A DNA stretch of 64,000 nt, taken from the NCBI RefSeq assembly GCF_016026235.1, contig NZ_CP065613.1, one strand, 5' to 3'. The stretch is from Escherichia coli (lineage in GTDB: Bacteria > Pseudomonadota > Gammaproteobacteria > Enterobacterales > Enterobacteriaceae). Position numbers: made by a program. Positions 39,001 to 45,000 of the stretch are shown in pieces; within the stretch, counting starts at the first letter, position 1; each line of letters begins with the position of its first letter.

Positions 39001-42000
39001 GTGGAAAACCAGACCACCAGTTCGCTTGGCGGGATCGCGGCGATGGAAACATTACTGCCTGCGCTATTCCACCTGCTGCTGGCAGGGGCGATCCGCTTTT
39101 GCAAACTCAATAATCCTATGATGTCACGCATAGCTACCGACCTGCGTCAGCGTCATGTACAGCCTTAAGGAGCACAAGATGAACATTTCGGAAGTCGATC
39201 TGCATAAACTGACGGTCAGCGATCCGTTCCTCGGTCAGTACCAACAACTGGTCCGCGACGTGGTGATTCCTTATCAGTGGGATGCCTTGAACGATCGTAT
39301 CCCAGAAGCGGAACCCAGCCATGCGATTGAAAACTTTCGCATTGCCGCCGGACTTCAGGAGGGTGAATTTTACGGGATGGTGTTTCAGGACAGCGACGTC
39401 GCCAAATGGCTGGAAGCGGTAGCCTGGTCGCTGTGCCAGAAGCCGGACGCCGAACTGGAAAAAACCGCCGACGAGGTAATCGAACTGATCGCCTCCGCCC
39501 AATGCGAAGACGGCTATCTCAATACTTACTTTACGGTAAAAGCACCCGAAGAACGCTGGAGCAATCTGGCGGAGTGTCATGAACTTTACTGCGCAGGTCA
39601 TCTGATTGAAGCCGGAGTCGCCTTCTTCCAGGCCACGGGAAAACGGCGCTTGCTGGGGGTCGTTTGCCGCCTGGCCGATCATATCGACAGCGTATTTGGT
39701 CCAGATGAAAGTAAGTTACACGGTTATCCTGGTCACCCGGAAATTGAACTGGCACTAATGCGCCTGTATGAAGTGACTGAAGAGCCGCGCTACCTGGCGC
39801 TGACGAACTATTTTGTCGAACAGCGTGGTGCGCAACCGCACTATTACGACCAGGAATATGAAAAGCGCGGGCAGACATCGCACTGGCACACCTACGGCCC
39901 GGCGTGGATGGTGAAAGACAAAGCCTACAGCCAGGCACATTTGCCCCTTGCGCAACAGCAAACCGCCATCGGTCACGCGGTACGTTTTGTCTATCTGATG
40001 ACCGGCGTCGCGCATCTCGCGCGTTTAAGTCACGATGACAGCAAGCGTCAGGACTGCCTGCGGCTGTGGAACAATATGGCCCAGCGTCAGTTATATATTA
40101 CCGGCGGCATTGGCTCGCAAAGCAGCGGCGAAGCGTTCACTAGCGATTACGATCTGCCGAATGACACGGTATACGCTGAAAGTTGCGCCTCCATCGGCCT
40201 GATGATGTTTGCCCGACGAATGCTGGAAATGGAAGGCGACAGTCAATATGCCGATGTGATGGAGCGCGCACTGTACAACACCGTGCTCGGCGGCATGGCG
40301 CTGGATGGCAAACATTTCTTCTATGTGAATCCGCTGGAAGTACATCCAAAATCGCTGAAATTCAACCATATCTACGATCACGTTAAACCGATCCGCCAGC
40401 GTTGGTTTGGCTGCGCTTGTTGTCCGCCAAATATCGCCCGCGTGCTGACCTCGATTGGTCATTATCTCTACACGCCGCGTGAAGATGCGTTGTATATCAA
40501 CATATACGCAGGAAACAGCATGGAAGTGCCGGTAGAAAATGGCACGCTGCGCCTGCGGGTTAGCGGGAACTATCCGTGGCAGGAGCAGGTGACGATTGCG
40601 GTTGAATCGCCCCAGCCGGTACGTCATACGCTGGCTTTACGTCTGCCGGACTGGTGCACACAGCCGCAGATCATATTGAATGGGGAAGAGGTCGAGCAGG
40701 ATATTCGTAAAGGGTATTTGCACATTACCCGCGAATGGCAGGAGGGCGATACGCTGAATCTGACTTTGCCGATGCCGGTACGCCGCGTTTACGGTAACCC
40801 GCTGGTGCGTCACGTCGCCGGAAAAGTGGCGATTCAGCGCGGCCCGCTGGTGTATTGCCTGGAACAGGCCGACAACGGCGAGTCACTGCATAATCTGTGG
40901 CTGCCCACCGATGCGCCATTTACGACATTTGAAGGCAAGGGATTGTTTAGCCATAAGATCTTAATCCAGGCACCGGGTTACCGGTATGAACAGAGCAATC
41001 CAGAGCAGCAACCGCTGTGGCATTACGACAGCGCGCCAGCCAAACGCCAGCCGCAAACTCTGACCTTTATCCCGTGGTTTAGCTGGGCTAACCGGGGCGA
41101 AGGCGAAATGCGGATCTGGGTGAATGAGGAAAAGCATCGCCATCCGGAGGTTGGATAAGGCGCTCGCGCCGCATCCAACGTAGGGAGCACATTGCCTGAT
41201 GCGACGCTTAATACGTCTTATCAGGCATACGAGTCGGTGCGAGAGCGTAGGCCAGCCGCACCGACATCCACCGGTGAATTAAAAACGCCAGCTCACGCCG
41301 GTGACAAAGGTAAAACTCTCATTACGATCAATCATCGGGCTGTCGGTAACCTCTTCCGGCAGCTCGCTGTATCCTGCGCTCGCCATCAATACGACGTGCT
41401 CTCCTATCGGGTATTTTGCCGTCAGGCTGACATAGGGCACCCAGGCATCCTGCGCGGAATAACTTGCCAGACCGCTACGACGGGACTCACTCTCTGAAAT
41501 GCCATAGTAATAGTCACTGAAATTCTCGTCATAATAGAGAACGCCCAGCGCAGGTGTCAGCGACAGACGACCTATCTGCATTTTGTGGAATACCGATAGC
41601 TCCCCCACCCAGCCGTTGCTGTTATCCAGAACGTCCGCAGCTGCAGAGGCTTTCACGGTTCCCCAACGCTCGTGGTGATACCAGGCAACCCCCGCCATAG
41701 CCGTACTATCACGCTTATCAAGCTGTTGCATGACATAATCGTCATTATCGGCAGGGTCAAATTCCAGCGGCATCCAGGATGCGGTCAGGCTAAGTTCATT
41801 TTTTTCACTTTGCGACAGAATAAAACCTAACGTGGTCTGACGAACATAAAAAGTATCACCTTCATAGCTAATCAGCGGAATTGCCTTTGTATTTTCATTA
41901 TAACCGCGATAAGGTGATTCATTATAAGCCGCACCGGCACCAATGGATAATTCAGGAGCAGTTGCGCTTGCCATAAAAGGCAACGCAAATAACGCCACAA

Positions 42001-45000
42001 TATTGCGGTTAATTAACATGTCCGGTATTCCATTTTAAAATAAGATAAAAAAGAGTCGGCATAGTAATGCTTACAATTTCTCCGGTGCAAGATTCATATT
42101 TATATAGTAATATATAAAATTATATATAATTGGGCTGTTGCGATGACAAAATTACAACTTAAGTACCGGGAGTTAAAAATTATCTCGGTAATCGCTGCCA
42201 GTGAAAATATCAGCCATGCCGCGACTGTACTTGGCATCGCACAGGCCAACGTCAGCAAATACCTTGCTGATTTTGAATCAAAAGTGGGTTTAAAAGTCTT
42301 TGACCGAACCACCCGGCAGCTGATGCTCACACCTTTTGGTACCGCGCTGTTACCGTACATCAACGACATGCTGGACAGAAACGAGCAGCTTAATAATTTT
42401 ATTGCAGATTATAAGCATGAGAAACGTGGTCGGGTCACCATCTACGCCCCAACCGGCATAATTACCTATTTATCCAAACATGTAATCGATAAAATTAAAG
42501 ATATCGGTGATATCACCTTATCGCTAAAAACCTGCAATCTTGAGCGTAATGCCTTTTATGAAGGCGTCGAATTTCCTGATGATTGTGATGTTTTAATCAG
42601 CTATGCCCCACCAAAAGATGAATCGCTGGTTGCCAGTTTTATTACCCAATATGCCGTAACCGCTTATGCCAGCCAGCGCTATCTTGAGAAACATCCCATT
42701 AGCCGTCCTGACGAACTCGAACATCACTCCTGTATTTTGATCGACTCGATGATGATCGACGACGCGAATATCTGGCGCTTCAACGTCGCTGGGAGTAAAG
42801 AGGTGCGGGATTATCGCGTGAAGGGAAATTACGTTTGCGACAACACGCAATCGGCGCTGGAGCTGGCACGAAATCACCTGGGGATTGTGTTTGCGCCAGA
42901 CAAAAGTGTGCAGAGCGATCTGCAAGACGGCACGCTGGTGCCCTGCTTTCAGCACCCGTATGAATGGTGGCTGGATCTGGTGGCTATCTTCCGTAAACGG
43001 GAATACCAGCCCTGGCGGGTCCAGTATGTGCTGGATGAAATGCTGCGTGAAATTCGCCACCAGCTTGCTCAGTCGCAGCAACTGCGGCCTGAACAAGCGG
43101 CGGAAAGCGAAGATTAATGATCGAGATAAAGGTAATGCACCCAGCTGGTCATGCGTAATAACACTTTGCGCATCACCGAGACATGGCTGAAATGATCAGA
43201 GTAGACCGCCACCTGGGCGTAAATACCGTCTGGTAAAGCGCTCAAATCAGTGTGCTCATTCAGTTCAATGGTCGCGATAACGCCATCTGAACCCGGCGCT
43301 GTGTTTAACGTCTGTAAGGTGCCGGTCGACTGATAAGCTCCGCTGGGAACAGCTGGACTAATGGCTGCCAGCTTACCGCTGAACACTTTGCCTGGCAGAG
43401 CGTTAAATACCACTTCCGCATCATCGCCGGGAGCCAGGCGCAGCAAGGAGTTCTGACGGAACTGCGCCACGATTTGTCGTTTCTGATCGGGTATAAACAC
43501 CATCACCGGACGTAGCGGCAGCGACGCGGCATAGGTACCCGGACGAATCAGCACCTGGGTCACATAACCATCGCTCGGCGCACGCACTATCGTCTGCTCA
43601 AGGTTATATTTTGCTTCCGCGAGCTGCGCTTTCAGGCTGGCGATTTGAGAATGTTCACCCAGCACCAGGCTATCCAGCTGGCTCTGGATCTGTTTTTGTT
43701 CCGCCGCTGATGACTTCACGGAGGCTTCCTGCGCCAGATAATTTTGCCGCGCCACATCGATATCGCGTTCTGAAAACGGGTTTACTTTCGCCTGGCTGCC
43801 GCGTGCGTAACGCTGATACTCTTTAGCGAATTTATCCCGCGTGGCCTTTGCCTGCTGAGTATTCGCCGCCATCTCATCTAACTCTGCGCCCAACGCCCGC
43901 TGTTTATGTTCTGCGGTAACGATATCCGCCATCAGCCGATCCACCCGCGCCTGATAACGCGTCGGGTCCAGTCGAAATAGCACTTCACCTTTTTTAATCA
44001 GCGTATTTTTCTTATCCGTCACTTCAATCACCACACCAGTCACCTGTGGGACAACAGGAATAGAAATAACCGCTTTTTGCGCTTTAAAGGTATACGGATG
44101 GTTATAGTTCATTAACAGAATTAGACCGCTGACAATAAATATTCCACCCAGGGCCGCTGTGGGAATGGTCCATTTATTTACGGGAATTTTGAAGATCTTA
44201 AACATTGCCCATGCAAAAGCCACATAGGTCAAAATAATCAGTAAATCCATAAGTATTACTCGGCAGAAGAGGATTTGATGTCGGCGAGCTGTTTCTCCAG
44301 CCCGGCAATGCGCTGTTGCAGTTGCATAACGGATGAATCATGGCTTTGCATTCCCCATCCCCGCTCCGGGCGGTAAAGCGTGGCCCAAATCCACAAAAAC
44401 GGCCAGATAACATGTAACGTAAAAAGACTCACCCAACCAGCAACATGAATGGCGTCGGCATGAGGATGATTACGTTTTTTAGCAATCAGGTAGGGAATAT
44501 CATGTAAAATAATAATCCCATAAAATATCACCAGAAATACAAAAATAAGCACTCCCAGCGCAAAATAGTCTAGGAACATATTTCCCTCAAAGAATATAAA
44601 AAAGAACAATTAACGCATATTATGAAATGCCATGATGCAGTGCAATTTCCTTATTTATATAACGACATATTGTTTTTATATACTTTCTGAAGTGTGCTGC
44701 GTGGCTTTTCAACAGGTCGAGGTTTATCATATTGAAATAATGGAACTATTGACCAAGCTAATGAATAACTCCAGTAAAACATCCACAGTACAGATAAAGC
44801 GTATTAAACCTTCAATTATCTACCGTTTATTGCTGATTGGCCTCGAAACGCCACTGGTGATTTACGGCCTGGTTTGCCCGCTCACCATCGAAACGCGAGA
44901 TTAAACTCCTGGCAAAACACGCCCCAGAAACGCACTTCTGTTGGCGTAGTCTGGGTTATTGCGCACGTAGGTTTAAAACGTAAATTGTAACAACGTGCGC

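Follow-up and report, generated by a model that had tools for sequence, protein, structure and literature searches.

What defines a tripartite efflux or secretion system is an energised transporter in the inner membrane, and periplasmic adaptors are nearly always encoded together with their transporter. In EmrAB-TolC the adaptor EmrA serves a pump of the major facilitator superfamily (MFS), and in aaeX-aaeA-aaeB a gene for a small membrane protein and an adaptor gene are joined by that of a FUSC pump; ydhIJK and operons of the fusaric-acid type presumably follow the same scheme, also combining a small protein of two transmembrane (TM) helices with an adaptor and a FUSC/PET pump. Here we analyse yiaT-yiaU-yiaV-yiaW, four genes at 41279-44579 of a 64,000-nt stretch of Escherichia coli DNA (contig NZ_CP065613.1, assembly GCF_016026235.1; the whole stretch is called the window below), in which the adaptor gene yiaV is preceded by yiaW, a gene for a DUF3302 protein. 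In about 150 loci sampled from genomes and metagenomes, DUF3302 is almost always paired with a YiaV-type adaptor, and yiaW-yiaV is an autonomous operon.

The pairing was followed in two surveys. A genome scan with the DUF3302 alignment as query, taking one genome per species, gave 73 loci, and wherever a locus has DNA downstream of the DUF3302 gene, a YiaV-like adaptor gene comes next on the same strand. A metagenome scan added 80 further DUF3302 loci, and among the 74 with enough downstream sequence the pair is retained in 72. The two genes are mostly 1-5 nt apart across 81 complete pairs (5 nt between yiaW and yiaV, which lie on the same strand), and pairs were found in Enterobacterales, Aeromonas, Vibrio, Ferrimonas, Shewanella, Marinobacter and a 7-Mb genome, persisting at adaptor identities as low as 42-45% (Aeromonas, Vibrio and Ferrimonas). 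Both exceptions are metagenomic: locus L136 has DUF3302 without an adaptor, and in locus L119 (6740-7468) an in-frame deletion fuses DUF3302 to the adaptor's final ~20 residues, which keep its C-terminal motif; the product ends IRRILLRMRSWQNYIFMEGH. This fusion may be a decay remnant, or it may hint that the C-terminal helix of the adaptor acts together with DUF3302. One genome locus, L018 (CACSKA010000004.1), is labelled Chryseobacterium sp. and carries a yiaWV pair 83% and 76% identical to that of E. coli; the contig looks enterobacterial (Serratia-like), and the record is probably mislabelled or contaminated.

A second DUF3302-adaptor pair, yibI-yibH (52176-53677, gap 2 nt), stands within the window itself, 8 kb from yiaWV, with no MipA or LysR gene next to it, and it is a likely source of redundancy for yiaWV in knockout screens. 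The other two genes follow a different distribution. yiaU-yiaT abuts yiaWV in 16 loci, all from Escherichia, Citrobacter and Pseudocitrobacter; in Enterobacter, Leclercia and Lelliottia some 6 kb separate it from a DUF3302-adaptor pair, and no copy occurs within 10 kb of the pair in Serratia, Yersinia, Rahnella, Pantoea, Klebsiella, Kluyvera, Raoultella, Buttiauxella and the non-enteric bacteria. yiaU and yiaT themselves are never separated in the loci scanned. Because yibIH has no outer-membrane protein or LysR neighbour, the DUF3302-adaptor pairing is near-universal and yiaU-yiaT adjoins it in three genera only, the locus probably consists of two separable two-gene units, yiaW-yiaV and yiaU-yiaT, rather than one conserved machine. 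A first-pass annotation of this DNA, made from sequence alone, had grouped all four genes into one module, which this distribution does not support; the partnership of YiaV and YiaW that it proposed holds at the level of gene pairing, and the gene identities it gave agree with the ORF (open reading frame) list, with Pfam and with RefSeq, where the names yiaT, yiaU, yiaV and yiaW recur in E. coli 042 and K-12.

To survey the surroundings, the ORFs closest to non-syntenic pairs (76 in genomes, 86 in metagenomes) were compared with Pfam, and among these 162 neighbours no family of ATP-binding cassette (ABC), MFS drug, resistance-nodulation-division (RND) or FUSC transporters was recurrent. The commonest environmental neighbour is instead a TolC-family outer-membrane protein with an OEP domain, whose gene comes immediately after the pair in L104, L112, L117, L130 and L147 and immediately before it in L078, six loci that are not related to one another. 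The DUF3302, adaptor and OEP genes of L130 are flanked on both sides by opposite-strand genes, and since it is bracketed in this way the operon is self-contained, without a transporter. Beside yiaWV in E. coli there is no OEP gene. Nor do the ORFs of the window include any ABC, RND, MFS drug or FUSC pump gene adjoining yiaTUVW, which upholds the first-pass statement that no ABC or RND partner is adjacent and extends it to the MFS drug and FUSC pumps; a nearby MFS gene, 2 kb off at 37768-39168, encodes an MFS_2 sugar-type transporter in an AraC-MFS-GH127 unit.

Several other neighbours were considered as partners. A gene for a DUF3313 lipoprotein (lipobox LFAGCSS) lies directly upstream of DUF3302 on the same strand in Biostraticola, an Enterobacter species and Serratia grimesii (L019 9254-9922, L044 ~9211-9852 and L069 9289-9960), and near the pair on a Pantoea megaplasmid (L056 12511-13137); an OprD-like porin gene adjoins the pair in L102; and, beside the cases weighed further below, a gene of the Na_H_Exchanger family occurs near the pair in L101 and L077. 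With four loci for DUF3313, four for Na_H_Exchanger and one each for MMPL and the OprD-like porin, all of these were set aside as too sporadic.

At the protein level, YiaV matches the Pfam domains CusB_dom_1, HlyD_D23 and HlyD_3, all above cutoff. Its nearest NCBIfam models all fall below theirs, namely MdtN (112.7 vs 376 bits), EmrA/EmrK (112 vs 390.8) and EmrA (52.5 vs 563), and its best solved relative by sequence is EmrA (phmmer against PDB, E 8e-12); TCDB enters YiaV as 8.A.1.1.4, uncharacterised. A YiaW-(GGGGS)6-YiaV fusion was modelled with AlphaFold2 (AF2) on an 18-row paired alignment, giving a mean pLDDT of 70.6 and 80-94 in the adaptor domains. The YiaV part of this model combines lipoyl and beta-barrel domains with an alpha-hairpin whose helices are ~56 residues each; two TM helices stand at the N-terminus and one further helix at the C-terminus, and a membrane-proximal domain is missing. 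Foldseek placed the EmrA chains of EmrAB-TolC, solved by cryo-electron microscopy, at the top (E 3e-19, TM-score 0.60-0.64), followed by MacA, AcrA and MexA among further matches, and the predicted fold of YiaV is thus that of an EmrA-like adaptor. A MAFFT alignment with EmrA, MacA and AaeA sets the YiaV family apart by an additional first TM helix with a basic loop, FKIFxIPxNKWT, after it, by an invariant MNYNHP at the periplasmic end of the second TM helix, and by a conserved C-terminal amphipathic helix HVSxMRKxLLRMxSWxNYLYLDH. Residues 18-28, in the loop, average 2.9 lysines and arginines with no aspartate or glutamate, and the loop is on that account placed in the cytoplasm.

YiaW matches Pfam DUF3302 (PF11742) with E 2e-43 and 146.7 bits against a cutoff of 32. 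It is a hairpin of two TM helices with the core HDIPYxIAKKRxHPHxDAIHxAGWVSLFTLHxIWPFLWIWA and a variable helical tail; P39, A43, S51, W59, P60 and W65 are invariant in our alignment A1, and the core is 60-77% identical across many 50%-identity cluster representatives of the family, which has 881 of them, the best-scoring 150 all being small. A search by sequence found no meaningful solved relative for YiaW. Its loop and the segment after the second TM helix carry the same positive charge (2.7 lysines and arginines each), which leaves its topology ambiguous by the positive-inside rule. A derivation of DUF3302 from AaeX/DUF1656 was ruled out, hhalign giving the DUF3302 profile a probability of 0.2% against AaeX.

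The yiaU-yiaT unit consists of a LysR regulator with a divergent MipA-like outer-membrane target. YiaT matches Pfam MipA (PF06629) over its full length (E 3e-51, 175 bits against a cutoff of 24.2; residues 26-246 on profile positions 1-221 of 221); it is not an OmpV equivalog by NCBIfam (94 vs 400 bits), and a search by sequence found no meaningful solved relative. YiaU carries an N-terminal HTH_1 domain and a LysR_substrate domain in Pfam, and in K-12 RefSeq its product is named 'DNA-binding transcriptional activator YiaU'. Shimada et al. in 2022 reportedly renamed YiaU CsuR, and are said, in the papers that cite their work, to have linked it with biofilm, complement and antibiotic sensitivity through 'membrane proteins of unknown function'. 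Under the name LpsR, YiaU has been studied by ChIP-exo and RNA-seq; its knockout raised yiaT by 2.8 log2, lowered the waa operon of the lipopolysaccharide (LPS) core and had an oxacillin phenotype (PMC9068703). The spacer between yiaT and yiaU is 123 bp long and AT-rich, and the regulator is divergent to yiaT, as the first-pass annotation had it; with regard to yiaV, however, yiaU is convergent and the two coding sequences overlap by 4 nt. An RNA-seq survey lists yiaU/yiaV among convergent overlapping pairs (PMC12288877).

A conserved 31-nt element connects the two units. Alignments of the yiaT/yiaU spacer and of the region upstream of yiaW from Escherichia and Citrobacter each contain one conserved block, and the two blocks are alike in sequence; that of the spacer is invariant across both genera, and that upstream of yiaW is conserved across them. 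The two copies share 23 of 31 bases in the same orientation and end 66 nt before the ATG of yiaT and 61 nt before that of yiaW. At up to 2 mismatches nothing else in the window matches, a count that is descriptive, as the pattern was derived from these two copies. Copy 1 contains the dyad ATATA-N5-TATAT and overlaps the -35/-10 of the predicted yiaU promoter (promoter-like site 42093-42120), and an operator overlapping the regulator's own promoter is usual for LysR autoregulation. When the 250 nt upstream of every DUF3302 gene were scored at 23 specified positions, the element reached at least 18 of them upstream of yiaW in all 16 loci with adjacent yiaU-yiaT and in none of ~65 others; the maxima were 16 in loci without adjacent yiaU-yiaT and 17 in random windows apart from real sites. 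yibIH has no copy. Every yiaU/yiaT spacer examined contains the element, including those of Enterobacter, Leclercia and Lelliottia, where it lies ~62 nt before yiaT. We consider this shared element, judged by its sequence and placement, somewhat likely to be the operator of YiaU, and read it as an ancestral YiaU-linked operator of which a second copy was recruited to yiaWV once the units had become neighbours. The copy at yiaW occurs only where yiaU is adjacent, which therefore suggests shared control by YiaU and lends support to the LysR control of the cluster that the first-pass annotation had assumed. Both yiaWV and yibIH have been described as operons with sigma-70 promoters, and the yiaT/yiaU spacer and the yiaW promoter are both bound by H-NS (PMC3946193).

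Taken together, these data lead us to lean, with some reserve, towards a TolC-docking conduit with a minimal inner-membrane part, accompanied by the yiaU-yiaT unit under shared control. YiaV would be anchored in the inner membrane by its two N-terminal helices, and YiaW, its obligate partner, would take the place of the ABC, MFS, RND or FUSC pump of other adaptor operons. YiaV would oligomerise in the manner of EmrA into a hexameric tube whose long alpha-hairpins would dock tip-to-tip with a channel of the TolC family, presumably TolC itself in E. coli, where its gene lies elsewhere; a ring of the TM hairpins of YiaV and YiaW, four helices per heteropair, could form the inner-membrane base, and the result would be a minimal envelope-spanning conduit without a canonical pump. 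In Escherichia and Citrobacter, where the units became neighbours, yiaT and yiaWV probably form one envelope-remodelling set that H-NS silences and YiaU co-controls, because the yiaWV promoter carries the second copy of the element in the yiaT/yiaU spacer. Hexamer formation, TolC docking, the conduit function and binding of YiaU at the element are steps that we infer. A stronger and more doubtful version would hold that DUF3302, the YiaV-type adaptor and a TolC-family channel make up a complete tripartite system without any ABC, RND, MFS or FUSC transporter, in which the hairpin ring, to which every YiaV and every YiaW would contribute two helices, would serve as a gate or proton-coupled element.

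Several observations weigh against the conduit and its control by YiaU. Linkage to an OEP gene is found in only ~6 of ~32 non-enterobacterial loci and only in the short-adaptor clade. In L117 (3779-9745) a gene of the MMPL family (RND superfamily) lies 547 nt upstream of DUF3302-adaptor-OEP, and L112 (771-4694) and L147 (3890-7810) both read DUF3302, adaptor, OEP and a Na+/H+-exchanger-family gene, the last two spaced by 0-12 nt; it is possible that such MMPL and Na+/H+-exchanger genes are energised partners in some lineages. YiaW-YiaV binding, YiaV oligomerisation and YiaV-TolC contact are predictions of the model, and the confidence of the AF2 model is moderate, its pLDDT of 70.6 overall coming with 55-75 in the TM regions. 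The 'RLS' tip motif by which MacA and AcrA dock on TolC appears to be only partly kept in YiaV: the equivalents of MacA R131 and S142 are conserved (the latter as S/T) and that of L135 is not, EmrA deviating as well. As to regulation, an AT-rich element in H-NS-bound DNA may instead be a site where H-NS nucleates or a promoter that was duplicated, and yiaV and yiaW are unnamed among the YiaU targets in the text or searched supplements of PMC9068703. Finally, the published single-gene phenotypes are weak and indirect.

Among the alternatives, the one that survives best is that YiaWV is the adaptor module of a transporter encoded elsewhere, for instance an orphan protein of the FUSC/PET family, an MFS pump or a pump of the RND superfamily, with YiaW as a small accessory subunit resembling AaeX, or AcrZ in its association with AcrB. 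The layout speaks for it, a small two-TM gene followed after 5-7 nt by an adaptor gene being also that of aaeX-aaeA-aaeB, as does the likeness of YiaV to MdtN and EmrA, the adaptors of FUSC and MFS pumps; the MMPL gene of L117 and the Na_H_Exchanger-family genes at L112, L147, L101 and L077 are of the kind it would predict. However, about 150 loci yield no recurrent transporter family, L130 is a closed operon of DUF3302, adaptor and OEP, homology of DUF3302 to AaeX/DUF1656 is undetectable, and adaptors generally travel with their transporter, so that we judge an unlinked transporter rather unlikely.

Less probable still is a role outside transport, in which YiaWV would be a scaffold across the periplasm, a sensor, or a stress-responsive structure, one that acts for example on the occupancy of TolC or the spacing of the envelope. 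The pair comes with no pump and has no evident energy-coupling domain, the YiaU regulon is described as acting on the cell surface, and the published phenotypes concern surface properties: deletion of yiaW raised the efficiency of Ca2+-mediated transformation; yibI was induced by urine in uropathogenic E. coli, its mutant having a competitive index of 0.33 and lower adherence; and the same IS1 insertion in yiaW arose in parallel in 3 of 6 macrophage-adapted lines, the insertion alone giving no phagosome-maturation phenotype. yiaV has in addition been a hit of a genome-wide association study in Vibrio vulnificus. Set against a scaffold or sensor are the full set of adaptor domains and the operon fusion with OEP genes, which are hallmarks of a conduit, and no sensor or signalling domain is present in YiaV or YiaW. 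That all four proteins form one envelope machine, with YiaT in the outer membrane, YiaV as bridge, YiaW in the inner membrane and YiaU in control, is improbable: adjacency in E. coli, the co-expression implied by the element common to yiaT and yiaW, and the varied outer-membrane or lipoprotein neighbours elsewhere (OEP, DUF3313, OprD-like porin), which suggest a need for an outer-membrane partner, would favour it, yet most genera and yibIH have no yiaT or yiaU beside the pair, yiaT is a transcription unit of its own beyond yiaU, MipA-family proteins are small barrels for which we know of no periplasmic coiled-coil on which a hairpin could dock, and the outer-membrane gene inside the operon, where there is one, is TolC-like, which leaves YiaT as partner of YiaV, an earlier suggestion, without support beyond this lineage.

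Should the complete tripartite version without a pump prove correct, these proteins would make up a class of envelope-spanning conduit not recognised before, one that occurs widely in Proteobacteria, exists in two copies in E. coli and is placed there under the cell-surface regulator YiaU. An adaptor whose only constant partner is a two-helix protein of 107 residues would widen the definition of tripartite systems, the more so as the pair at times shares a closed operon with a TolC-like channel; otherwise it would point to a hidden, unlinked transporter. The two E. coli copies, yiaWV and yibIH, could explain the weak effects of single knockouts, the y-ome families DUF3302 and YiaV/YibH gain starting points, and the 31-nt candidate operator links the operon to the cell-surface regulon of YiaU (LpsR/CsuR). 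The genes and their annotations were already known, and yiaU is partly characterised. The first-pass annotation had called the function of the whole set undefined; this holds for yiaV and yiaW in the literature searchable by gene names and DUF3302, where no mechanism is assigned to DUF3302 or YiaV, but not for yiaU, studied as LpsR/CsuR with yiaT and the waa operon among the genes it affects (PMC9068703). New relative to the searched literature are the near-universal DUF3302-adaptor pairing, the closed operons of DUF3302, adaptor and OEP, the family-specific termini of YiaV, the paralog within the window as a likely source of redundancy, and the shared 31-nt element.

Among 5426 complete E. 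coli genomes, 4886 match the 4-kb stretch containing the four genes, the best of them at 98.9% identity. The coordinates of the genes and of the two element copies are collected in Table 1.

Table 1. Genes of the yiaTUVW locus, its paralogous pair and the two copies of the 31-nt element, in positions of the window
Feature	Position	Strand	Description and basis
yiaT	41279-42019	-	246 aa, MipA/OmpV-family outer-membrane protein; ORF list, Pfam MipA
yiaU (LpsR/CsuR)	42143-43117	+	324 aa, LysR-type transcription factor; Pfam HTH_1 + LysR_substrate
yiaV	43114-44250	-	378 aa, EmrA-like periplasmic adaptor (membrane fusion protein); Pfam HlyD-type domains
yiaW	44256-44579	-	107 aa, DUF3302, first gene of the yiaWV operon; Pfam
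Conserved 31-nt element, copy 1: ATATATTACTATATAAATATGAATCTTGCAC	42085-42115	-	yiaT/yiaU spacer, putative YiaU operator
Conserved 31-nt element, copy 2: ATATGTCGTTATATAAATAAGGAAATTGCAC	44640-44670	-	upstream of yiaW, same orientation as copy 1
yibH	52176-53312	-	378 aa, yiaV paralog, 77% identical; K-12 annotation
yibI	53315-53677	-	120 aa, DUF3302, yiaW paralog, 75% identical

The yiaW-aldB spacer (44580-45000, GC 38%) is highly variable between Escherichia and Citrobacter except for the 31-nt element, and contains a 90-aa ORF (44632-44904, + strand) without a Pfam match, where E. coli 042 annotates a 67-aa hypothetical protein. The yiaTUVW cluster is bordered on one side by a REP-derived (repetitive extragenic palindromic) naRNA4 match at 41149-41227, between the GH127 gene and yiaT (Rfam RF02564, 63 bits), and on the other by REP-like palindromes at ~45010-45090 in the aldB-yiaW spacer, just 5' of the aldB start codon. 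Upstream of yiaT, 36727-41158 holds an intact unit of an AraC regulator, the MFS_2 sugar-type transporter and a GH127 beta-L-arabinofuranosidase-like gene, which is kept in E. coli 042 and of which K-12 has only the pseudogene remnants ysaC/ysaD. Unrelated Rfam matches elsewhere in the window are the cspA thermoregulator (15502-15929), the sok antitoxin RNA (16212-16363) and the small RNA ES036 (35886-35928). The hokA/sokA locus does not lie between yiaW and aldB, Rfam placing sok beside cspA, and a role in anti-phage defence was dropped, the four proteins having no PADLOC match.

In comparison with known systems, EmrA of the MFS-type pump EmrAB-TolC (PDB 8zar and 8zal) is the best match of YiaV in both sequence and structure, and the two share anchoring by a TM helix rather than by a lipid, a lipoyl domain, a long alpha-hairpin, a beta-barrel and the lack of a membrane-proximal domain. 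YiaV is nevertheless only 19-20% identical to EmrA and stays far below the NCBIfam EmrA/EmrK cutoff (112 vs 391 bits); it has a second N-terminal TM helix, the MNYNHP boundary motif and a conserved C-terminal helix, none of which occurs in EmrA, and its gene is not followed by an emrB-like gene, being preceded instead by that of DUF3302. With aaeX-aaeA-aaeB the locus shares a small membrane protein gene placed a few nucleotides before an adaptor gene, an EmrA-like adaptor (YiaV against AaeA, E 1e-14) and a LysR regulator next door (AaeR in the aae case), whereas yiaWV lacks a gene for a FUSC pump, no relation of DUF3302 to DUF1656/AaeX is detectable, and yiaU is convergent with the yiaWV operon, not divergent. 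YiaT belongs with the family of OmpV and MipA, the MltA-interacting protein, by its full-length Pfam match and differs in not being an OmpV equivalog, its regulator being tied to the waa LPS-core operon as well (PMC9068703). The unit of yiaU and yiaT resembles the divergent regulator-target pairs of the LysR family in its layout, in an operator-like spacer element lying over the yiaU promoter, and in the control of yiaT by YiaU.

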